This document shows positions 5,406 to 58,041 of a DNA stretch of 61,135 bases, piece by piece. The position numbers were made by a program, and so were the translations under genes. The notes under the pieces were generated by a model. It was not told the origin of the DNA and made no database searches. It was given only the letters and a program-made list of their open reading frames with translations. The first letter of the stretch is position 1. The number at the start of each line of letters is the position of its first letter. Origin of the DNA: Escherichia phage Ec1-ASingh; sequence record PQ561393. One strand, given 5' to 3'.

Positions 5406-5999
5406 ATGGCAATATTAGACTGGCCGGAAAATCTTAGGCCTTCTTCAATGAATTGGACGCTTTCATCTAGCGGTTCTATGTTTGAGAGCGTATTCAATAA
5501 ATCAACACAAACAGTCACCTTTCCTGGTTCTAAATGGAAAGTAACTATGTCTTTCCAAGACTTAGACGATTTCGAGTCGCGCCTTCTCGAATCCATCATC
5601 GTAGATCTTGATGGCATGGGTGGGCGAATTCGCCTGGGTGACTTTGGTCGTTGCGGTGTGCCAGCACAGGGCACACCTATAGTTAGCGGCGCTAACCAGA
5701 CAGGGAAAAGCATCCTTACTGCCGGATGGCTGCCGGACCGTATGATTCTTGCCCGCGGGCAATATTTAACAATTGAAGACGAAATGAAAATGGTGCTTAC
5801 GGATGCCTGGTCTGATGAGCAGGGTTTTGCAACCATCCGTATAGGCCCAATGCTTCGCATTTCTCCTGCTGCCGGCGCACCTATTGAAGTTCAAAGCCCG
5901 CGCGGTATTTTCATGCTAACGGAAAACGAGAACGGTGTTGCTCGTAAACCTGCGTTCTCGAATGATTTTAATCTGTCTTTCATGGAGTACATAGAATGA
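5406..5999 (+). CDS. Minor tail protein
   Basis: 197 aa ORF immediately after tape measure; RBS AGGACGA. Confidence 0.5.
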   Translation: MAILDWPENLRPSSMNWTLSSSGSMFESVFNKSTQTVTFPGSKWKVTMSFQDLDDFESRLLESIIVDLDGMGGRIRLGDFGRCGVPAQGTPIVSGANQTGKSILTAGWLPDRMILARGQYLTIEDEMKMVLTDAWSDEQGFATIRIGPMLRISPAAGAPIEVQSPRGIFMLTENENGVARKPAFSNDFNLSFMEYIE

Positions 6000-6580
6000 T
6001 TACCGCAGATTTATCTGAAGAGGTTGCATATTACTTGGCGCAAGGAAACGTAAACCTTGCTCTTGCAACGGAGATTGAATTTAACTCCGGTATATCACGC
6101 TATCACTCTGCCACCGGTCAAATAGAAATTGGCGGGGAGATTTTTTATGGCACAGGGCAGTTAGGCGATTGCTCTGTAATTAATGAAGAAAATAATACCT
6201 CTGACCAACAAATTAACTTGACGCTTAATGGCTTAAATAACGAACTCGTGGCAATAGCTTTAAACGAGAAAGTTGTCGGTCGTCGGGTGACTTGCTACAT
6301 TGTCGTTTTTGACGATGATTATACGGCAATGGCGTATAACATTATTTACGTAGGCAAGATCGCTCAACCTGCTTTAAGCGCGGGTGGTACTTGTGCGATT
6401 TCCTACAATGTGGGTAACATCTTTCAAGAATGGTCAAAAAGTAAACCATACCGCTTCACTGACGAGTCACATGTTAAAGATCATCCAGGCGACAGGATTT
6501 TCAGATATGTTGGCCAAATGTCTGAACGTTCTATTTATTGGGGAAGTAAAAAAGATGCTCCGGGGTTCACATACTCATGA
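5996..6580 (+). CDS. Minor tail protein
   Basis: 194 aa, 4-bp overlap with upstream tail gene. Confidence 0.5.
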   Translation: MITADLSEEVAYYLAQGNVNLALATEIEFNSGISRYHSATGQIEIGGEIFYGTGQLGDCSVINEENNTSDQQINLTLNGLNNELVAIALNEKVVGRRVTCYIVVFDDDYTAMAYNIIYVGKIAQPALSAGGTCAISYNVGNIFQEWSKSKPYRFTDESHVKDHPGDRIFRYVGQMSERSIYWGSKKDAPGFTYS

Positions 6581-6987: not shown

Positions 6988-9234
6988 ATGCCACCTGCAA
7001 TAATTGCCGGAGCAATTGCGATAGGCGCCTCTGCCGCTTATGCTGCCGGATATATCGCATTAACAACAGCCCTTATTATTTCAACGGCCGCAACGGTTGC
7101 GGGAGCCCTGCTAACGAAAGTTTCTGTGCCTTCGTTAGGTAACTATACATCGCAGCAGGACAGAAAACAAGTATTGCGATCGTCGGCAGCACCAAAGAAC
7201 TATATTTACGGTAAGACTAAAATGTCTGGCGTAATGTTCTTTGCTGAAGAACAAGCTGGTGATCAAACGGATAAAGAATGGCTTCATATTGCCATCGCTG
7301 TTTGTGCCCATGAAGTGAATGCTATATTGGCTGTTTATTTAGGCGACGACGATATCAGCACCTACGGTGAATATGCACAATATCAAGTCCACAATAACTC
7401 GACCGATGTGTCTGATATGCTTTCGCGAGCACCGTCATGGAAGCCCGATATGATTGGCCAGGGCATCTGCTGGGTACGTCTGTCTCTTAAATTCAATCAG
7501 GAGAAATTCCCTTCTGGTTTACCGAATATTACTTTCCTTGTTGAAGGTAAGAAAGTTTACGACCCGAGATCTGGTCTAACTCAATATTCCAATAACGCCG
7601 CTTTATGCATTCTTGATTACTACCGCGATTATCTGAAAGTACCAGATTCAGAATTATTAATGGAAGAATTTATCGAAGCGGCTAATCTTTGTGATGAAAC
7701 CATCAACGGCAACTCCTATTCGGAACCTCGTTATACAATCAATGGGGTTTTCGATGCGTCGGAAGCTGTTTCGTCAACATTGGATGATCTTCATTTATGT
7801 TGTGCTGGTGAACCGACTTACATTGGCGGTAAACACGGCCTGTTAGTTGGTGCTTATTACGGCCCCGCTACTATGGTGCTGGACGAAAGTCAGATTGTTG
7901 AGGATATAAAGATCGTTCCTGAGACTCCATGGAACGAACGTATTAACATCGTACAAGGCACTTTCATTGATCCCGAGCAAGGTTACACGGAGGTTGATTA
8001 CCCTGCTGTAAAAGTTGATGCTTATATCATTGAAGATGGTGCTGAGTTCACAACGGATCAAAAATACCGCTTTGTTACTTCAGAGTTTCAAGCCCAGCGA
8101 CTTGCCCAGATAGCGATAAACCGCAAGCGCCTGGGGCGCACGATGGATATATCCTTAAACTTTGCGGGCTACCCTTATCGTCCAGGGCGGTATGTTAAAA
8201 TCAATATACCACAGCTAGGCATTGCTATGCAGGAATTCCGCGTCACTAAATGGGCGTTGAATCCTAATGGTACAGGTATCAAAATCACGGTTCGCCAAGA
8301 AAACGCTGACGTCTGGGGCGACGCTGTTGGTAAACCTATTGACAGACCAGACCTGACAAACTTACCAGGCCCGAACGTACCAGCACCCACGAACATTCAA
8401 TTTGTTCCTGTCGCATCGAATGCTGAAGTTAACTATCAAGGTGAGTTATCGTGGGTTAACCCCACTATTGTCGACTTTACACAGATCATTATTCAGGGTA
8501 ACGGTAAGACGATTGTTAGCCAACAGTCAACTGAAACTAAAATTCAGATTAATGGATTAGATCGGGGTGTCACCTATACGGCATATTTGCGTAACTCCGC
8601 TAAGGCTGGAATCCTAAGTAATGTAGCTACATTGCAATTCGTCTTAGCCATTGACTCAAAGTATTATGGTGACATTTACGCAAACAACGGTTATTTTAAA
8701 GGGATTATTTACGCGAACAATATTGTCGGCGATGTTTACAACAAAATGTCGGGTGGAATACCGTATGTGAACGTATCGGACGACTACGGAAACGGGTTCC
8801 CGTGGGCATCTAGTGCAGGTGAGCACGTGATATGGTCCATACCTGGAGAGGAGTTCGATAGAACCATGGACTCCAATCTATACCTAACATTAACCTCATC
8901 GGAGCGGCAATATTTCACTGTGGTAATGCGAGCGCCTGGACTGCCGGATCAACAGGTAGCCTATATCGACACAGGAAACGACGGGTCTAATTCCCCCGCA
9001 GTAGTACAGCTCAACGGGGTGACTGTTCCAGCGACTGACAGGGACACTCCTTGCCAGCTAGTGTGTGTGGTTGGGACAAACAGGTCGTCTGGGGCATCAT
9101 TCTACACACCGTTGGCAGTGCAAACATTGAAAGAGAATTCTTCCGGTGCTAAAGATTTAGTTGGGCGTACAGTTCGTGAAGTTCCGTGGGTGGCCCTGTA
9201 TAAAAAAGGCCGTACTCCTGTAATACCTGTGTAA
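6988..9234 (+). CDS. Tail tip / host-specificity protein (I/J-like) with fibronectin III-like segment
   Basis: 748 aa; hydrophobic N-terminus typical of tail assembly I-like proteins; position after gpK-like gene. Confidence 0.5.
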   Translation: MPPAIIAGAIAIGASAAYAAGYIALTTALIISTAATVAGALLTKVSVPSLGNYTSQQDRKQVLRSSAAPKNYIYGKTKMSGVMFFAEEQAGDQTDKEWLHIAIAVCAHEVNAILAVYLGDDDISTYGEYAQYQVHNNSTDVSDMLSRAPSWKPDMIGQGICWVRLSLKFNQEKFPSGLPNITFLVEGKKVYDPRSGLTQYSNNAALCILDYYRDYLKVPDSELLMEEFIEAANLCDETINGNSYSEPRYTINGVFDASEAVSSTLDDLHLCCAGEPTYIGGKHGLLVGAYYGPATMVLDESQIVEDIKIVPETPWNERINIVQGTFIDPEQGYTEVDYPAVKVDAYIIEDGAEFTTDQKYRFVTSEFQAQRLAQIAINRKRLGRTMDISLNFAGYPYRPGRYVKINIPQLGIAMQEFRVTKWALNPNGTGIKITVRQENADVWGDAVGKPIDRPDLTNLPGPNVPAPTNIQFVPVASNAEVNYQGELSWVNPTIVDFTQIIIQGNGKTIVSQQSTETKIQINGLDRGVTYTAYLRNSAKAGILSNVATLQFVLAIDSKYYGDIYANNGYFKGIIYANNIVGDVYNKMSGGIPYVNVSDDYGNGFPWASSAGEHVIWSIPGEEFDRTMDSNLYLTLTSSERQYFTVVMRAPGLPDQQVAYIDTGNDGSNSPAVVQLNGVTVPATDRDTPCQLVCVVGTNRSSGASFYTPLAVQTLKENSSGAKDLVGRTVREVPWVALYKKGRTPVIPV

Positions 9235-16351: not shown

Positions 16352-17340
16352 AACTTGAACCCCGCTATTACCCCGCGCATGTTCTCGCCGTAGAAGATGA
16401 TCGGGGTGTTCATGTTTCGTTCGTCCATCACGTTGTACCGTGATGCGTCCCACTCTGTTGCAATACCTTTAAGCTGCAATAAAAGGTCTATATTGTAAAC
16501 CCCGACTGTCTGATACTCTTTAAACATAGCAGAAGCACCATCCAGCTCAACAAAGTGGGTTCTCGCCAGTGCGTTCTCGATGTATACCTTACCCATCTTG
16601 TCCGCGAACGGTTTGATCTTTTCGAGACAATTAAATAGTTCGCCGTCAATGGGGTACAGCGACTGACCCTTTTCCGTGCGTTCAATGATCGAATCAATGT
16701 TAGGCCACTCCAGAGCTAAGAGCTGGGTACGCAACCAACAGCCGTCCGCATAATGGAACGTCATGCTGTTTTTCGCCGCGCTAATATGCGTAGGCGCTTT
16801 TTTAATGCGCAGAAGCTCTTTAATTGCCATACGAGGAACAACGCAGTCCACAGGGAACACAGCACCGAACCAGTATTGCACGATACTAGCGTTATTGGTT
16901 GCGTACATGCTGCCCGCTTTCACCAGTACGCCGCAAGACCATGGGCGGGACGCATCGTCGCTTATAAACGGCTGTACGCGCTCTAAACCGCCGAGGAACG
17001 CTTCGCCGTTAATTGGGTAGGTTTCACCTTCAGGTTCTACGTGTACAGTGGGCCCGGTTAAGGTGTCCACGCTCACTTTAAACCCTCCAGACTTAATGTT
17101 CAATTTTCCGTTGGCCAGCATAGTCATCTGTACAGCGTCATCACACGCAGCGATAGCTTTAAGCATCGGTTCTGCTTTTGGTGTACAGTCAATCTGGAGG
17201 CCAATAGGTGCGCAGAGTGCAATCGTACCGTTAAACCCGCGAACGTATCCATTCTCGATACGGAAGTGGGTGAGCCCCTCCTGGAGCTCTTTACGGGCGA
17301 TCGAACCCTGCACGAAACGCAGTGCGCCTAGTAAGTCCAT
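16348..17340 (-). CDS. Sliding-clamp-like protein (beta-clamp-like), putative processivity factor
   Basis: 330 aa; pattern similarity to DnaN segments (..SDDASRPWSCGVLV....ATNNASIV..); adjacent to polymerase. Confidence 0.4.
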   Translation of the reverse strand: MDLLGALRFVQGSIARKELQEGLTHFRIENGYVRGFNGTIALCAPIGLQIDCTPKAEPMLKAIAACDDAVQMTMLANGKLNIKSGGFKVSVDTLTGPTVHVEPEGETYPINGEAFLGGLERVQPFISDDASRPWSCGVLVKAGSMYATNNASIVQYWFGAVFPVDCVVPRMAIKELLRIKKAPTHISAAKNSMTFHYADGCWLRTQLLALEWPNIDSIIERTEKGQSLYPIDGELFNCLEKIKPFADKMGKVYIENALARTHFVELDGASAMFKEYQTVGVYNIDLLLQLKGIATEWDASRYNVMDERNMNTPIIFYGENMRGVIAGFKL

Positions 17341-17789
17341 TATTTCACCTCCAGTCGAGCTGGGATAATAAGATCCACTGACCAGCTTGTCAATTCAACT
17401 TCGTTTGGAAGAGTGGGTTCACCCCATACATAATATTTCTTTAAAGGCCATCCCCTTATTGGGTCGAGAATACGGATGTTTCCCTCGAACGTTGATAGCG
17501 CAAGGATAGCGTGAGTCCCACCTTTCATATTAAGTGACGGCGTTGTCAAGATAAAAATCGCATCCCCAAATATTGTATTTTTTCGAGGGTGGCCGTAGCT
17601 GTATGGAATTTTGTATTCGTCCAGAATATCATCATACCACTCGCCTTTATCTCTTTTATAATACAGGCGCTCATGAAACTCATTATAGGCTTGATCCGCG
17701 GACAATCCAACAATCATCCCCATACAAGTAGCCATGCAAGAGTCGGGGGTTGGTTGCATTAAATGCTGCATCATCATTACCTCAATCAA
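17340..17789 (-). CDS. Peptidase C39-like cysteine peptidase domain protein
   Basis: QPTPDSCMATCMGMIVG (Q-x5-C-x3-C-LAM-like) and later HAILAL..ILDP, matching the C39 Gln/Cys/His/Asp arrangement; paralog of 48133..48594. Confidence 0.5.
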   Translation of the reverse strand: MIEVMMMQHLMQPTPDSCMATCMGMIVGLSADQAYNEFHERLYYKRDKGEWYDDILDEYKIPYSYGHPRKNTIFGDAIFILTTPSLNMKGGTHAILALSTFEGNIRILDPIRGWPLKKYYVWGEPTLPNEVELTSWSVDLIIPARLEVK

Positions 17790-46338: not shown

Positions 46339-46465
46339 TTTGTAACCCCTTATTTCTGTGTTTTGCTGCTGTGTTTATATAGTAGCAGAACTAGAACTAA
46401 TGTCTAACTTTGTATTGTAAAGTAATGTAAAGGCACTACTACGTTAGGTCCATGGTGTATGGGTG

Positions 46466-46477
46466 CATGGGCCCATG
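46466..46477. repeat. 12-bp perfect palindrome catgggcccatg
   Basis: Self-complementary sequence in G-rich non-coding region. Confidence 0.6.
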
Positions 46478-46486
46478 GAGTGTGGA

Positions 46487-46517
46487 GGGTGTAGGCACGC
46501 TCAGGGTGTAGGTACGC
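46487..46517. repeat. Direct repeat gggtgtagg(c/t)acgc x2
   Basis: 14-bp units at 46487 and 46504. Confidence 0.6.
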
Positions 46518-46519
46518 AA

Positions 46520-46536
46520 GGGGTGGGCAGGGTGGG
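46520..46536 (+). other. Canonical G-quadruplex motif GGGG-T-GGG-CA-GGG-T-GGG
   Basis: Four G3+ tracts with 1-2 nt loops on plus strand within a 120-bp G-rich stretch. Confidence 0.5.
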
Positions 46537-47106
46537 CTCAGGTATGGTGGGGTAGGTATAGCACGCACACGCGTCTAGCATGTTTACGTATTAGATGCAA
46601 CTAATATCTTAAGTCTTCTGTAGCAAAAAGTGCTAAATCGAGATCGGCGCGAATCTATGCTAGGGTACAAGGTAGAGGGTAAAAGCGCCTACAGCGCCTT
46701 ACAGCGCCCTATAGCATAGGTGTATACATGTACAGGACTATGCAACAATCATACCAACATGCGGATGCACTATAGTAGTGCATGTGTGTACACATATCTA
46801 TACAGACAAAGAAAGACAAACAATCTAATCAATGTATGTAACAATAAGCATACTAATTAATAGACAAGCTATCGGTCACACGGCGTGACTATCACCTCAC
46901 CGATGATCAGCGATGCAACTGATAACGCCGCCGCGGCCTCCTGGTAACGTATCTCGCTTTCGTCTTACCAAGATTGAGTCGCCAGTAGGCACCCACACGC
47001 ATCCGTTTCGTCAGTAGACAAACTATCAAGTGGACTGTGCCACCTCACCCATCATAAACTTGCCCGTACCTGTTATTTCCATGTGTAAATACTCGAGAGG
47101 TGTACC

Positions 47107-47334
47107 GTGCATATTCCGCTGACTTTACTGTATCTTTCCATCCTGTACTTCGTTTTCCAGAGCGTGCTCATTGCTGCTGGCGTAACCGTTGGCACCGTGT
47201 TTGTCGTGTACGCACTTGTCGTGCTGCTTACTAAGGATGATGCTAAATCCCTGCGTTACACCTGCAACGTTCTTAGTTTGCTTGTCATAGTGGTGCCATG
47301 CCTGACGATCCTATGGGATTTCTACACGGAGTAA
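47107..47334 (+). CDS. Small membrane protein (2 TM)
   Basis: GTG start with RBS GAGAGG; two hydrophobic helices. Confidence 0.45.
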   Translation: MHIPLTLLYLSILYFVFQSVLIAAGVTVGTVFVVYALVVLLTKDDAKSLRYTCNVLSLLVIVVPCLTILWDFYTE

Positions 47335-47423
47335 TGTGGTCACTAGAATCAACTTGCACGGTATTTAAATCCGCGTTAGTTCCCTGCTATAGTTAGTCTG
47401 CAAACAACAAAGGGGGAACTAAA

Positions 47424-47798
47424 ATGGGTATCAAAGAAGTTTGGTCTCACGTTAAGACGTTAAGCAGGCCTCAGCGTCAGCTTCTGGTGATTGTACCGAA
47501 CCGTAATTATTTAGCGGAGCTCTGTGCTCAAGCGTTCGATGAATGTGACACTCGGCGTATGGTTCGTCGTGGGTTGCTCGTTGTGCTCATCCGCTATGAG
47601 GATCGAGACATGAAGGTTATGGTGGGCGCTTACCACGGGGAAGAGCTGGTCTGCCGAACCAAAGAGCAGTTAATGGGCCGACGCGACCAGGACGTTGTAA
47701 TCTGCGATCCTGTTAATATGGGTGCCAAGCTCAAGCACGAATTGCAGTGCCTGTCGGCTACCTTCGGGGCTCATTTCAGTGTAGTGGTGGACAAATGA
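47424..47798 (+). CDS. Hypothetical protein
   Basis: 124 aa, RBS GGGGGAA. Confidence 0.5.
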   Translation: MGIKEVWSHVKTLSRPQRQLLVIVPNRNYLAELCAQAFDECDTRRMVRRGLLVVLIRYEDRDMKVMVGAYHGEELVCRTKEQLMGRRDQDVVICDPVNMGAKLKHELQCLSATFGAHFSVVVDK

Positions 47799-48133
47799 AA
47801 GACATCCTTCTTCCTAAGCTGTATACGGCGCTCCGTGATACGTTGCTTCAGGCCGATTGGGTGACTTCCCATAGCAGTCCTGAAGATACGTTTATTGTTC
47901 TGGTGTCGCCGGACAACGTTGTTCGCTGCGTGCTGCACTACATGCCGGAGTGCCAGAACGTGTACCCGAACGGGACGTGGACGCTGAAGCTCAACACGGA
48001 CGAGGGTACATGGGTCGCTGAAACGGCAACCCGTCCTATTGAGACCGACTCAACCTTCTTCATGTCCGACTTCCGACGCTTGCTTTCTATCAGTGTCATC
48101 CTCAAAGACCAAATCAGCAAGGACCCATTTTAA
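47795..48133 (+). CDS. Hypothetical protein
   Basis: Start at ATG 47795 (ATGA overlap). Confidence 0.45.
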   Translation: MKDILLPKLYTALRDTLLQADWVTSHSSPEDTFIVLVSPDNVVRCVLHYMPECQNVYPNGTWTLKLNTDEGTWVAETATRPIETDSTFFMSDFRRLLSISVILKDQISKDPF

Positions 48134-48594
48134 TGCGCAGAATTGTACATCAGACGCAGCCGACCCCGTTGTCGTGCATTGCTACGTGCCTGGCTATGCT
48201 CGTTGGCCGTAAGGCTCATTTCGTCGACCAGGAGTTCACGCAGGATTACGGGCAGCAAAAAGTCGACGTCCCAATGGCCCTGGCTCCGTTTAATATCATG
48301 TGTAAACCACAGCTGGCGGCGGGCGTCCATCAGCTTGCAACGGGGTCGCTGTACCTTGCCACTGTACCGTCGCTCATGAGTGCGGGCCTGTTCCACCAAA
48401 TCATTATCGACACACGGTCTGGAAAGGTTGAAGTCTTCGATCCTGGCCAGGGTGTTAGCAAAACGACGCAGTATTATGTCCCTCCGGAGTCGCCAACGCT
48501 CGACCCGGACAGTCAATTTTATGATCCTTTGGCGTTTCCATTGCGGACGTGGATCTTGGACTATGAACTGGTGATATTGGACGATGCCGACTAA
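48133..48594 (+). CDS. Peptidase C39-like cysteine peptidase domain protein
   Basis: QPTPLSCIATCLAMLVG and HQIIID...VFDPGQG; same Gln/Cys/His/Asp arrangement as C39 bacteriocin-processing peptidase domains; paralog of 17340..17789. Confidence 0.5.
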   Translation: MRRIVHQTQPTPLSCIATCLAMLVGRKAHFVDQEFTQDYGQQKVDVPMALAPFNIMCKPQLAAGVHQLATGSLYLATVPSLMSAGLFHQIIIDTRSGKVEVFDPGQGVSKTTQYYVPPESPTLDPDSQFYDPLAFPLRTWILDYELVILDDAD

Positions 48595-48928
48595 TCATAG
48601 AGTTCCATATTTTACAAGATACGAAGACGCTAAGGCCTACGCCCAGGCCTTAGCGGATCGGTGCAGGACACCCGACCGCACGCGCTATGTCGCACTAGCA
48701 TGGGCGAATCGTTGGGCCGTGGGTACTAAGAAGCAGTTAGAAGATCTCGGCCTGGGGCCGCTGGTGCCGCTGTACAGCCGGCAAAACGTGCGCATGAAGC
48801 AGGAGGAGCAAGCACAGATTTTCGCATACTGGAACCAGTGTGGGAATATTAAAAAGACAGCTACGAAGTTTGGCGTGTCATACGGCAAGGTATATCATAT
48901 CGTTCGTTTAATGAGGAACAAGAAATGA
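48584..48928 (+). CDS. HTH DNA-binding protein
   Basis: C-terminal IKKTATKFGVSYGKVYHIV helix-turn-helix-like segment. Confidence 0.45.
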   Translation: MPTNHRVPYFTRYEDAKAYAQALADRCRTPDRTRYVALAWANRWAVGTKKQLEDLGLGPLVPLYSRQNVRMKQEEQAQIFAYWNQCGNIKKTATKFGVSYGKVYHIVRLMRNKK

Positions 48929-49401
48929 CGGCTATTGCATATCGTGACGGGATTATTGCTGCGGACCGACAGGTTACATGGGGTTCCGTGGCGGGTGTCT
49001 CCAAAAAGATTCATAAAATAAATGTCCATCCTTACGGGCTGTGCCTTGTAGCGATGAGCGGGTTCGTTTACGGTGAAGAAATCATTCTGGACCAGTTGCG
49101 CACCAACAGCTCGGGCAGGGGTGAAAACATCGGTGAAATGCAGCGCGACAGCCGGTACGGCTTCCTGATCACTAAGGAGATGAAAGTTCACGCTATTTAT
49201 GGTGACGGTCGGGTTGGCATGGAAGAGCATCACGAAAACCACTTCATTGCGGAGGGTAGCGCATTTCAGTTCCTGATGGGCGCGATGGCAGCCGGTGCAA
49301 GCGCTCGTGAAGCAGTTGCTCTGGCGTGCGACTACTGCGATTCCTGCGGCCAGGGTATTGATACTATTGACGTTCGTGAGGCGCTGAAAGATGAAGAATG
49401 A
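48925..49401 (+). CDS. HslV/proteasome-beta-like Ntn hydrolase (peptidase T1-like)
   Basis: Met-Thr N-terminus, TAIAYRDGIIAADRQVTWG, SKKIHK, and C-terminal GSAFQ..AAGASAREAVALA..D resembling HslV Thr1/Lys33/GSG/SAREIAEKAL regions. Confidence 0.5.
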   Translation: MTAIAYRDGIIAADRQVTWGSVAGVSKKIHKINVHPYGLCLVAMSGFVYGEEIILDQLRTNSSGRGENIGEMQRDSRYGFLITKEMKVHAIYGDGRVGMEEHHENHFIAEGSAFQFLMGAMAAGASAREAVALACDYCDSCGQGIDTIDVREALKDEE

Positions 49402-49783
49402 TGGTGGTGCGTGCTTCGACAATGTAATCCCGAATGTTCTGTATCTAGCACGAAGGATTAAGACGTGCCATTTCGAGGAGACGCCGTTAGGGATACATGT
49501 GGTCATCAACGGGGAATTGCACCTTTGTCAAAGTGAAGACCTTGCAATTGCGGTCCTGGACAGCAATACTAACTGCAAAGGTGAGCTTTATGTGTACTGC
49601 GCAGAAACGGAAACGCTCGTTCTGCAAGGTATCGGTATCGTCACAGGTATTGCGGATTGTGCTTACCACATACGGGAGATTCTGGATGGCCAGATTGAAG
49701 CTCGCGAGGTCGATCAAGCCGAGGGGCAAGGTAACAAGAACGACACTGGTAACGGGCCTTTTAACCAGGCCTACGAAGGGTAG
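49391..49783 (+). CDS. Hypothetical protein
   Basis: 130 aa ORF, overlaps upstream stop. Confidence 0.45.
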   Translation: MKNDGGACFDNVIPNVLYLARRIKTCHFEETPLGIHVVINGELHLCQSEDLAIAVLDSNTNCKGELYVYCAETETLVLQGIGIVTGIADCAYHIREILDGQIEAREVDQAEGQGNKNDTGNGPFNQAYEG

Positions 49784-49802: not shown

Positions 49803-49964
49803 ATGGGCGGACCCTTCGACGGGAAAACTATTGCATTATGGGACGAAATGCCCGGTAATACTGGAACAATGGAGTTCAGTATTCCGAGCTACAATAACGG
49901 CGAACGGGGTTTATACAAACCGGACGCGGAATTCGCGGATTGTGTAACCTGGAGAACGGTATGA
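49803..49964 (+). CDS. Hypothetical small protein
   Basis: Start at ATG 49803; upstream part of the ORF-track version overlaps the preceding gene; weak RBS. Confidence 0.3.
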   Translation: MGGPFDGKTIALWDEMPGNTGTMEFSIPSYNNGERGLYKPDAEFADCVTWRTV

Positions 49965-50164
49965 GTAAAGCAGAGTCGGAAGCGCAAGTTCTTTCTCTTA
50001 TGATGCGAGGCCATGCAGCAAAAGAGGGCATCACCAAAGAAATGGAAGATGTCCTTGGAGAGCTACAGGCCATGCGCCTGCGTTATAAGAACGAACAGGG
50101 CGATAAAGGGGAAGCGGCATTTTTCTGCGCTTTAGCTGTTTTTAATGCGGAACTACAATTATGA
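49961..50164 (+). CDS. Hypothetical protein
   Basis: ATG 49961 with RBS GGAG, ATGA overlap. Confidence 0.4.
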   Translation: MSKAESEAQVLSLMMRGHAAKEGITKEMEDVLGELQAMRLRYKNEQGDKGEAAFFCALAVFNAELQL

Positions 50165-50703
50165 TCCCCGCATGGGTTCCCTCATGGGTTCCCAAGTGGC
50201 TCTGGGCCGCCCTGCCTTATTTGGTAGTGGCGGTTTTGATCGCTGCTGGGGTGTGGAAGTATAACCATGACGTAGAGAAAGCCAGAACTGGAGGTTTCGA
50301 TGCCGGTGTCGCGTACCAAAAAGGCATTGAGACGATCGATACTCTGCGCACACGACAGGAACGAGAAGATGAGAAGAAGCGAATTGAAGGGCAGGCGGCT
50401 GCTCGTGTTGCTGATGCTAATCGCGATCGTGATCTTGCTTTGTCTCAGCTTGACGGGCTGCACAAAGAACTCAACCGGATACGTGCAATCGGACAGCGCT
50501 ATACCGGACCTCAGTCCTCTGGCACGTCAACCGGAGAGATCATCAATATGCTCGCCGACCTGTACGAAGCGAGCGAGCGAGACTACAATGCAGCGGCAGC
50601 AGAAGCTGACAGCTATTACAACGCCGGACTCACCTGTGAAATCCAATACGACTCCTTGAAGGCCAAACATGATGAAGCAAAAGGTAGCCAAGCGGCTAAC
50701 TGA
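50161..50703 (+). CDS. Inner-membrane spanin (Rz-like)
   Basis: N-terminal TM helix then charged coiled-coil periplasmic domain; contains embedded lipoprotein ORF. Confidence 0.6.
   Translation: MIPAWVPSWVPKWLWAALPYLVVAVLIAAGVWKYNHDVEKARTGGFDAGVAYQKGIETIDTLRTRQEREDEKKRIEGQAAARVADANRDRDLALSQLDGLHKELNRIRAIGQRYTGPQSSGTSTGEIINMLADLYEASERDYNAAAAEADSYYNAGLTCEIQYDSLKAKHDEAKGSQAAN
50369..50659 (+). CDS. Outer-membrane spanin (Rz1-like lipoprotein) embedded in +1 frame of Rz-like gene
   Basis: Signal peptide with lipobox LSLTGC, Pro-rich mature region; RBS AGGAA upstream of ATG 50369. Confidence 0.55.
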   Translation: MRRSELKGRRLLVLLMLIAIVILLCLSLTGCTKNSTGYVQSDSAIPDLSPLARQPERSSICSPTCTKRASETTMQRQQKLTAITTPDSPVKSNTTP

Positions 50704-50890
50704 CAAAGAGCTCGAAGCGCACGCCTCTAAGGTGGGTGAAGATTGCAAAGAGCAGTACGAGAATTACCGTATGCAGATACTCGCTATTCTTGATCAGGCG
50801 ACTGAAGCTGGTAATGTTAATCTTGCAGGATTCATGTTCGCCTTTAGCGCAGTCAGTAACGAAATCGCAAGGCGCAACGGTATTAAGTAA
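50669..50890 (+). CDS. Hypothetical protein
   Basis: 73 aa ORF. Confidence 0.4.
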   Translation: MMKQKVAKRLTDKELEAHASKVGEDCKEQYENYRMQILAILDQATEAGNVNLAGFMFAFSAVSNEIARRNGIK

Positions 50891-50952
50891 CGTTGCACAA
50901 TGTGATATCCCGCCTTACCCTGCCCCTTGTTTAATCAACAGGGGGCATTTTT

Positions 50953-56798: not shown

Positions 56799-56818
56799 TT
56801 TGTAGATATTGCAAGACG

Positions 56819-56885
56819 CTCCCGTTGGTGTTAATTTTACATCAACGGGAGCACGGGCTCCAGTTCAAATAGGAAATTTGGAGCC
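56819..56885 (+). promoter_or_regulatory. Two tandem hairpins between scaffold and capsid genes
   Basis: ctcccgttg-N15-caacgggag and ggctcca-N16-tggagcc; first stem is the same sequence as the terminator stem at 44597. Confidence 0.4.
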
Positions 56886-56934
56886 GTCCACGGGGATATG
56901 GCGCCATAAACTGAAACCGTTTTTGGAGACGACC

Positions 56935-58041
56935 ATGTCGAGAATCCTTGTGTCTGGTGCGCCGATGCTGAACCTTCGCGCTACCAATTCAATTCTGATG
57001 TCCGCGGTGCGCCGTGGTGCCATCACCGAGCTGGACGATGTTATCGTTCCGGAAATCTTTGTACCTTATGTTCAGAACCGTACTACTGAAAAGTCCCGTC
57101 TGATCCAGTCCGGTGCTTTGCAGGTGTCCGAGCGTCTGAACGCCGCCCTGTCGGGCGAAGGTACAACCTTCAACCAGCGCTTCTTCAAAGACCTGGACCG
57201 TGATGAAGAGAACACCTCTTCCGCATCTAACCCGGCCGATTCCACCCCGGGCGGTATTGCCTCAGGGCGTGAGATTCAGGTTCGCCTGTCCCGAAACAAA
57301 TCCTGGGGTTCCGCGGATCTGCTGGACAGTCTGATCGCTCCGGACCCGATGATGGCGATTGGTGATCTGGTCGCCGGATATCGTGCTAACCGTTTGCAGC
57401 GTGCATTCGTTGCGACCGTTAAGGGTGTGTTTGCAATGAACGCCGCTGCGCCAGTAACCTCTGGTGATAAAGCATCCACCCACACTCAGAACGATATGAC
57501 CCGTGACATCTCCGGTTCTACGTTCACCGACGGTGTGACCAACTTCAACCCGGCTGGCGTGATTGCTGCTGCTGGTACTATGGGTGACTCCCTGAACGAA
57601 CTGTCGATGATGATGGTTCACAGCGTTGTCTACCAGCGTATGCAGTTGCTGAACCTGATCGACTACATCCCTGATGCAAGCGGTCAAGTGAACATCGCTA
57701 CTTACATGGGCCGTGAAGTTATCGTGGATGACTCTATGCCGGCCACTGGTGGCGTGTTTGAAACCTGGCTGGTCGGTGCTGGTTCGTTCCAGCTCGGCGT
57801 CGGTTCTGCTAAAGTACCTGTCGAGACGGAACGTAAACCTGCATCCTACCAGGGCGGCGGTTCTGAAATCCTGCACCATCGCTGGGAAAACATCATCCAC
57901 CCTGTCGGTCACGCATGGGTTGGCACTGCGGCAGAAGGCGGCCCGATGAACTCCGCGCTTCAGACTGCTGCGAACTGGGCGCGTGTATTCCCGGAACGTA
58001 AGCAGATCAAAGTCGCTCGACTGATCACCCGTGAGTTTTAA
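56935..58041 (+). CDS. Major capsid protein
   Basis: 368 aa from ATG 56935 with RBS GGAG; position after scaffold; followed by strong terminator. Confidence 0.7.
   Translation: MSRILVSGAPMLNLRATNSILMSAVRRGAITELDDVIVPEIFVPYVQNRTTEKSRLIQSGALQVSERLNAALSGEGTTFNQRFFKDLDRDEENTSSASNPADSTPGGIASGREIQVRLSRNKSWGSADLLDSLIAPDPMMAIGDLVAGYRANRLQRAFVATVKGVFAMNAAAPVTSGDKASTHTQNDMTRDISGSTFTDGVTNFNPAGVIAAAGTMGDSLNELSMMMVHSVVYQRMQLLNLIDYIPDASGQVNIATYMGREVIVDDSMPATGGVFETWLVGAGSFQLGVGSAKVPVETERKPASYQGGGSEILHHRWENIIHPVGHAWVGTAAEGGPMNSALQTAANWARVFPERKQIKVARLITREF

Follow-up and report, generated by a model that had tools for sequence, protein, structure and literature searches.

We analysed a 61,135-nucleotide stretch of DNA from Escherichia phage Ec1-ASingh (PQ561393; the window), and in particular six consecutive plus-strand open reading frames (ORFs), O1 to O6, at positions 47424-49783. 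An earlier note, made from the sequence alone, had described three of them as a C39-like cysteine peptidase (O3), a helix-turn-helix (HTH) protein (O4) and an HslV-like hydrolase (O5). The window belongs to a Klebsiella phage of the Queuovirinae, and the region is probably the first, conserved part of its rightward operon, carrying two independently spread accessory hydrolases with a putative regulator, O4, between them. This part is bounded by a divergent control region on one side and by lysis and packaging genes on the other. O3 and O5 would each act alone as peptide-bond hydrolases on specific host or phage proteins during middle-to-late infection. O3 would employ a Cys/His/Asp triad with a Gln oxyanion hole, like the PCAT peptidase domains, and O5 a site of the Thr1/Lys33/Asp17 type, with neither a dedicated ATPase nor HslU. 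O4, with its putative Mor/C-like HTH, would probably act as the activator of the lysis and structural genes further downstream. The patchy, mobile distribution of the two hydrolases favours a part in host takeover or counter-defence over one in core morphogenesis. Folds, conserved catalytic residues, lack of a propeptide, gene order and distribution were established from sequences and structure models; enzymatic activity and regulation by O4 are what we infer.

By sequence profiles and predicted structure, O5 is a PPH-type miniature proteasome homologue, an N-terminal nucleophile (Ntn) hydrolase of the proteasome family. The protein matched phrog_1040 ('peptidase HslV family') at 5.5e-32, and the profile of its family matched 169 proteasome-beta, BPH and HslV chains with a best E-value of 8e-6. 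Its AlphaFold2 model, with a predicted local distance difference test (pLDDT) score of 94.8, displays the proteasome-beta fold. Alignment with E. coli HslV (reference taken from NC_000913.3) using hhalign placed Asp14, Lys28 and Ser112 of O5 opposite Asp17, Lys33 and Ser124. Moreover, Thr2, Asp14, Lys28 and Gly46 are retained in 52-53 of 55 unique ORFs of the O5 family. The threonine stands right after the start codon: among the 53 ORFs with the N-terminal motif the preceding residue is Met in 42 and Val, Ile or Leu, presumed alternative starts, in 10 more, the last one being a spurious pattern match. Methionine aminopeptidase accepts Thr at the second position. Given the place of the Thr directly after the start codon, removal of the initiator Met would expose the nucleophile of O5.

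The HslV-like call was thus borne out by profile, structure and the catalytic residues Thr2 and Lys28. In the Pfam search that the earlier note had proposed, O5 itself matched no model at E up to 1, including the Proteasome model. NCBIfam returned no match for O5 at E up to 0.01, and PF00227 was touched by 3 of 28 O5 relatives, at 0.014. Direct sequence searches of O3 and O5 against the PDB yielded nothing useful. Fold similarity and the expected catalytic residues, which the earlier note had treated as decisive, were found for both peptidases.

The assignment to PPH rests on several shared features. The family was described as proteins of about 140 residues from tailed phages and prophages that lack helix H2 and a propeptide and radiate from BPH and HslV (Fuchs, Alva and Lupas, 2021; PMC8665760). 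Its catalytic set consists of a Thr1/Asp17/Lys33 triad and Gly47 in the oxyanion hole (PMC8665760). O5 is alike in the equivalents of Thr1, Asp17, Lys33 and Gly47, in the lack of propeptide and H2, in its compact size and in grouping with HslV and BPH. No difference emerged in the features compared, the comparison being with the published description, itself bioinformatic only. The missing H2 appears as a 13-residue gap in the alignment with HslV, and the O5 model has a single helix (residues 48-58) between the strands at 38-44 and 77-82, followed by coil. Relatives of O5, which occur in phage genomes and viral contigs, measure 141-167 aa. With HslV (ClpQ), O5 has in common the proteasome-beta fold and the N-terminal Thr nucleophile; it differs in its length (158 versus 176 aa), in the 13-residue deletion at the H2/pore segment and in having no hslU-like neighbour.

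O3 is, as judged from its model and its conserved residues, a small standalone C39-type cysteine peptidase of the very large phage family phrog_4049. The AlphaFold2 model (pLDDT 90.7) has a predicted papain-like fold that is nearest to bacteriocin-processing peptidase domains. The top Foldseek matches were to PCAT1 (E-value 1.9e-3, template modelling (TM) score 0.50), and the C39 domains of PCAT1, LahT, ComA and CvaB were the best structural matches. Among 105 O3 relatives of 23-49% identity, Cys15, His88, Asp103 and Pro104 are invariant and Gln9 is conserved in at least 90%. In an hhalign alignment Cys15 falls on the catalytic Cys32 of CvaB, whose reference sequence had been verified beforehand (100% identity in plasmids). 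The spacing of the residues is similar as well, with Q9-x5-C15 in O3 against Q26-x5-C32 in CvaB, and H88-x14-D103-P against H105-x15-D121-P. The C39-like call of the earlier note is therefore upheld by the structure (AlphaFold2 and Foldseek) and by the conserved Gln, Cys, His and Asp.

Nevertheless, O3 differs from known C39 peptidases. Compared with peptidase-containing ABC transporters it is free-standing, with 153 aa and no transporter part, and its similarity to the PCAT C39 domains is too low for a Pfam match, the TM score being only 0.50. In the Pfam search proposed in the earlier note, O3 itself was unmatched, and 25 of the 105 relatives matched Peptidase_C39 (PF03412) at E up to 0.1 (best 2.4e-6). 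Because only the relatives match PF03412, the link between O3 and the Pfam family is transitive. An exhaustive profile search showed that the O3 family comprises 769 representative clusters, nearly all of 135-160 aa and standalone. In UniRef the O3 orthologue of Klebsiella phage vB_Kpn2-P2 is named 'Peptidase C39 domain-containing protein'. A phage-encoded double-glycine leader was considered as O3 substrate and rejected, as none was found in the genome: among 2100 candidate start sites there was no strict leader, and 9 loose matches look like chance. The 'LTDKELEAH' stretch of O10, a gene further downstream, has no Gly-Gly, and no transporter-like gene was detected among O1-O10.

Against Pfam, O4 matched HTH_28 at 7e-5 and Mor (PF08765) at 7e-4, the latter with 20.0 bits against a cut-off of 24.9, so that both matches lie below the curated cut-offs. 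A match to phrog_532 scored 1.9e-4. Residues 87-114 aligned with residues 93-120 of the verified Mor protein of phage Mu in hhalign (E-value 2e-4, 46% probability, 28 columns), and the profile of the O4 family also weakly matched a resolvase HTH. All matches are confined to the C-terminal 30-40 residues. The C-terminal HTH may be of the type found in the Mu Mor/C activators, and the O4 gene likewise lies just upstream of late genes; unlike Mor/C, O4 has no counterpart of the N-terminal dimerisation region, as nothing aligns outside the HTH, and all scores stay under the cut-offs. The earlier HTH call is thus weakly supported, and only for the C-terminal part. 'HTH protein' appears a reasonable label for O4, and 'late transcriptional activator' is a label inherited from annotation.

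Next, we compared the gene order and distribution of the two peptidase families. The C39-like gene lies just upstream of PPH in all six cultured genomes in which both positions were read (9g, JenP1, CAjan, HdK1, ChristophMerian and CSP1). The layout, which the earlier note had considered not to be a standard phage arrangement, is conserved in Queuovirinae. The gene in the middle varies: it is Mor-like in the present lineage and in Nonagvirus-type phages, a 61-aa membrane protein in Seuratvirus-type phages and an unrelated 122-aa protein in locus L117. In loci L058-L060 there is no middle gene. Among cultured phages, PPH was found essentially only in Queuovirinae (53 records), and about 34 distinct PPH loci outside this subfamily have no C39-like gene within 6 kb. 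About 170 genomes of cultured phages contain a member of the C39-like family, among them 9g, CAjan and Vi01-like, Pseudomonas and Vibrio phages. In 68 of 80 C39-like loci PPH was absent within 5 kb; the search for these related loci used a 15-sequence subset of the 105-sequence alignment as query. Lambdoid-type contigs have the C39-like gene in a nin-like region, flanked by a replication gene on one side and NinB/NinG-like genes on the other (names read from the sequences), and besides these general nin-region neighbours no recurrent partner was seen. Across the PPH and C39-like loci surveyed, neither family has a conserved companion gene, be it a partner, an unfoldase or a substrate. Taken together, the loci suggest that the O3 and O5 families are separately mobile.

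The window itself contains a second C39-like gene, found through distant family members that matched the window. It encodes a 145-aa protein and is located between the gene of a DNA polymerase processivity factor and dpdA, beside folE and queD-like genes. Only vB_Kpn2-P2 has this paralogue in common with the window (99.3% identity, unannotated there); the next best match, at 41%, is in the 150-kb Enterobacter phage FENT2. Such narrow sharing supports the view of the C39-like family as a mobile accessory gene.

Two further settings were observed. In the Salmonella enterica contigs L004 and L005 a P4-like satellite with primase, Derepression and Ogr_Delta genes ends in a C39-like homologue (8001-8411; 136 aa, 37% identical), beside the host aceBAK genes. 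The homologue stands alone there, in a type of slot that often holds accessory cargo. In L008, a 55-kb viral contig, the PPH gene (5853-6182) comes right behind a KTSC-domain gene, with a Tad2-like (PF11195) gene two genes downstream of PPH, and is thus placed among small accessory genes of anti-defence type.

Several observations weigh against two independent hydrolases with a regulator between them. O3 itself has no Pfam match at E up to 1, and the profile of its family stayed below significance against PDB sequences. The HTH evidence for O4 is sub-threshold, and the timing of expression was deduced solely from consensus scans. The PPH relative BPH has an intact active site and showed no activity on standard substrates (PMC5777263), so an intact triad is not proof of general protease activity. 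A targeted literature search returned neither a substrate nor an experiment for either family in phages and no paper that describes what phage PPH or phage C39-like proteins do; a transposon-mutagenesis preprint did not cover Queuovirinae. Moreover, the order of the C39-like gene followed by PPH is kept in all Queuovirinae lineages examined, even with differing middle genes. The two genes overlap directly in L058-L060, and five non-Queuovirinae loci, unrelated and of lambdoid type, carry both. A functional link between the peptidases is thus possible.

In its strongest form such a link would make the cassette one unit controlled by the HTH protein, in which the C39-like and PPH proteins attack a common target one after the other or jointly in a complex. 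The translationally coupled junctions of the window also speak for it. On the other hand, each gene is found far more often alone than together with the other, and the HTH gene is not between the peptidases in Seuratvirus-type and other lineages. The five lambdoid-type loci place the two genes in different modules, about 4 kb apart, and common descent by itself would account for synteny inside a single viral subfamily. Nor does PPH carry a propeptide that a partner could cleave off; activation of PPH by the C39-like enzyme through a propeptide cut was rejected, since essentially every PPH gene has its Thr codon right after the start. We consider a single unit unlikely, and the processing or regulatory system suggested in the earlier note is weakened by peptidases that stand alone in many phages, a middle gene that is swapped or absent and a PPH without propeptide.

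Pairing of O5 with host HslU, raised in the earlier note, would make O5 an HslV mimic that docks on the host unfoldase and hijacks host proteostasis by diverting ATP-dependent proteolysis. Lys28 of HslV, which binds the HslU C-terminus, would align with the variable Val25 of O5. The 13-residue deletion falls on H2, and O5 does not conserve the HslU-responsive basic pore cluster of HslV (Arg86/Arg89/Lys90; PMC5777263). PPH proteins were published as lacking H2 (PMC8665760). In the related HslV descendant BPH the residues of the HslU interface are gone, and a pull-down with BPH did not recover HslU (PMC5777263). O5 also gave no match to Pfam Proteasome or any NCBIfam model. No HslU-type AAA+ gene was found in the operon or adjacent to PPH in other loci, and no neighbour family is conserved across the 34 other PPH loci. 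With no unfoldase gene nearby, the H2/pore segment gone and a related protein that did not bind HslU, pairing is unlikely, and a hijack of host proteolysis through HslU seems very unlikely indeed.

Three other roles were weighed. As counter-defence or host-takeover proteases, the C39-like enzyme would remove Gly-Gly-linked ubiquitin-like conjugates of bacterial immunity and PPH would degrade host immune or stress proteins without an ATPase; this specific proposal has a small chance of being correct. If true, it would provide the first biological role for a viral proteasome homologue and for a phage family of hundreds of clusters. Very unlikely is a lysis function, in which O3 would be an accessory endo(iso)peptidase that escapes with endolysin through the holin lesion and attacks the cell envelope. 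Lambdoid-type phages carry the O3 family outside the lysis cassette, in the nin-like early region, the second paralogue of the window lies among replication and DNA-modification genes, and the best structural matches are cytoplasmic leader-peptide peptidases. Inspection of the 153 residues, made with no signal-peptide predictor, revealed no cell-wall-binding domain or signal sequence. Also very unlikely is a role of O3 or O5 as a maturation protease of prohead or tail. The position of PPH is in favour of it: outside Queuovirinae no partner gene is conserved beside PPH and only large-terminase genes recur, 1-3 kb away in 7 of 34 loci (terminase read from sequence). PPH also lies directly before terS in L125 (between spanin genes and terS; names read from sequence) and about 2.7 kb before terS in the window, and no prohead protease was found in the head module. 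Against it, both genes are patchy accessories rather than core genes, and the head module consists of a scaffold and an SPP1 gp13-like capsid protein, a capsid type that assembles without a protease. The major capsid ORF (56809-58041) starts at a TTG, and its likely true start is ATG 56935 (MSRILVSG...). The N-terminal 'extension' that had fed the idea of a prohead protease was accordingly dismissed as an artefact of ORF calling from the upstream TTG.

Under the preferred reading of two independently spread accessory hydrolases, what we obtained for this window is a correct, unsurprising annotation rather than a new system. PPH has been published as a family, the C39-like proteins form an unnamed PHROG, and the domain assignments are already in public annotation; relatives carry 'peptidase HslV family' and 'late transcriptional activator'. 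Both families are widespread in phages and have intact active sites. The question of their substrates extends beyond this locus. Queuovirinae can be grown on E. coli K-12 and have the two genes next to each other, which makes them a convenient system for finding the roles of the enzymes.

The positions of the genes, their junctions and the candidate control signals are listed in Table 1.

Table 1. Genes, gene junctions and candidate control signals in the window.
Feature	Position	Strand	Remarks
Second C39-like paralogue	17340-17777	-	145 aa; 30% identical to O3; phrog_4049, E 2.6e-38
Short direct repeats	46814-47055	+	AGACAARCWATC three times, CACCTCACCSATSAT twice; exact copies nowhere else in genome
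Small hydrophobic ORF	47107-47334	+	75 aa; GTG start; same ORF annotated in OY979394.1 (L001 4109-4336)
Sigma-70-like promoter match	47364-47393	+	TTTAAA-18-TATAGT with upstream TG; 30 nt before O1
O1	47424-47798	+	124 aa; strong Shine-Dalgarno AAGGGGG upstream
O1/O2 junction	47795-47798		ATGA
O2	47795-48133	+	112 aa; phrog_21152 (unknown function), E 2e-27
O2/O3 junction	48131-48135		TAATG
O3, predicted standalone C39-type papain-fold peptidase	48133-48594	+	153 aa; phrog_4049; Gln9, Cys15, His88, Asp103
O3/O4 junction	48584-48594		11-nt overlap; ATG 48584, stop 48592-48594
O4, putative C-terminal Mor/resolvase-type HTH	48584-48928	+	114 aa; HTH at residues ~72-113
O4/O5 junction	48925-48928		ATGA
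O5, predicted PPH-type proteasome-family Ntn hydrolase	48925-49401	+	158 aa; Thr2, Asp14, Lys28, Gly46, Ser112
O5/O6 junction	49391-49401		11-nt overlap; ATG 49391, stop 49399-49401
O6	49391-49783	+	130 aa; no assigned function
O7	49803-49964	+	
O8	49961-50164	+	ATGA junction
Rz-like spanin	50161-50703	+	ATGA junction
O10	50669-50890	+	
Terminator-like hairpin	50921-50947	+	11 bp stem, then T run (TTTTT); 6 nt before endolysin ATG 50953

The six ORFs lie on the plus strand where the earlier note had placed them, and all five junctions between them overlap. Chaining by ATGA or TAATG, as it had been described, applies to three of the five, the other two being 11-nt overlaps. The gene chain runs beyond 49783 through O7, O8, the Rz-like spanin and O10, and ends at 50890. 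The closest relative is Klebsiella phage vB_Kpn_K9PH25C2 (OY979394.1, 60,209 bp; Caudoviricetes, Queuovirinae), with 95.6% DNA identity over the 3.2 kb around the cassette, followed by vB_Kpn2-P2 with 93.2%. OY979394.1 has genes annotated in the same frames, and O2, O3 and O5 are kept in 17 related loci; O1-O6 are therefore real genes. With its 61,135 bp the window corresponds to roughly one complete genome. Plus-strand genes extend from 47.1 kb to the end of the window and onward to about 12.9 kb, with cassette, lysis, terminase, portal, scaffold, capsid and tail genes. Minus-strand blocks at 13-46 kb hold replication and 7-deazaguanine functions.

O1 homologues are confined to the closest lineages, and no family match was obtained for this protein. 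PADLOC defence models and NCBIfam gave no matches save one weak, spurious match to O1. In Nonagvirus-type and Klebsiella-type relatives (17 loci) the gene directly before the C39-like one is always O2. A protein related to O6 follows PPH in Seuratvirus-type loci, and the gene is absent from Nonagvirus-type loci. The small hydrophobic ORF of 75 aa, for which no PHROG match was found, is probably the first gene of the rightward unit. An optional gene of 91-97 aa stands between the Mor-like gene and PPH in L001 (OY979394.1 5926-6201, 276 bp), L011, L048, L051 and L052; the window is without it. Its presence in some relatives marks the cassette as a site of gene gain and loss.

Upstream of the operon, about 1 kb of non-coding DNA (46340-47100) separates the divergent gene blocks. 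Rfam and tRNA scans of this region gave no match. Two of the three copies of AGACAARCWATC are followed by CACCTCACCSATSAT 20-30 bp later, and in a shuffle test at least three matches occurred in 0 of 100 shuffles for the 15-mer and in 14 of 100 for the 12-mer. These repeats are possible regulatory sites. In addition, two tandem 17-mers, AGGGTGTAGGYACGC, are present at 46486-46519. The sigma-70-like site before O1 is a consensus match only, such sites being no commoner in the region than in shuffles.

At the other end, the hairpin before the endolysin gene contains the GGGGG Shine-Dalgarno sequence of that gene within its 3′ arm. It is identical in the closest relative and not kept in more distant ones, and it could serve as a terminator or in translational control of endolysin. 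The promoter match and the hairpin suggest a separate, possibly middle, transcription unit that would be transcribed from 47364-47393 and end at 50921-50947. Such a unit would be an analogue of the lambdoid nin-Q region, where a C39-like gene also sits. The label 'late region' in the earlier note is thereby made uncertain. Finally, an ORF embedded in the spanin gene in another frame (50300-50659, plus strand) encodes a lipobox, LSLTGC, after a hydrophobic stretch and is kept in L059 and L060; it is probably an embedded o-spanin, with ATG 50369 as the likely start.

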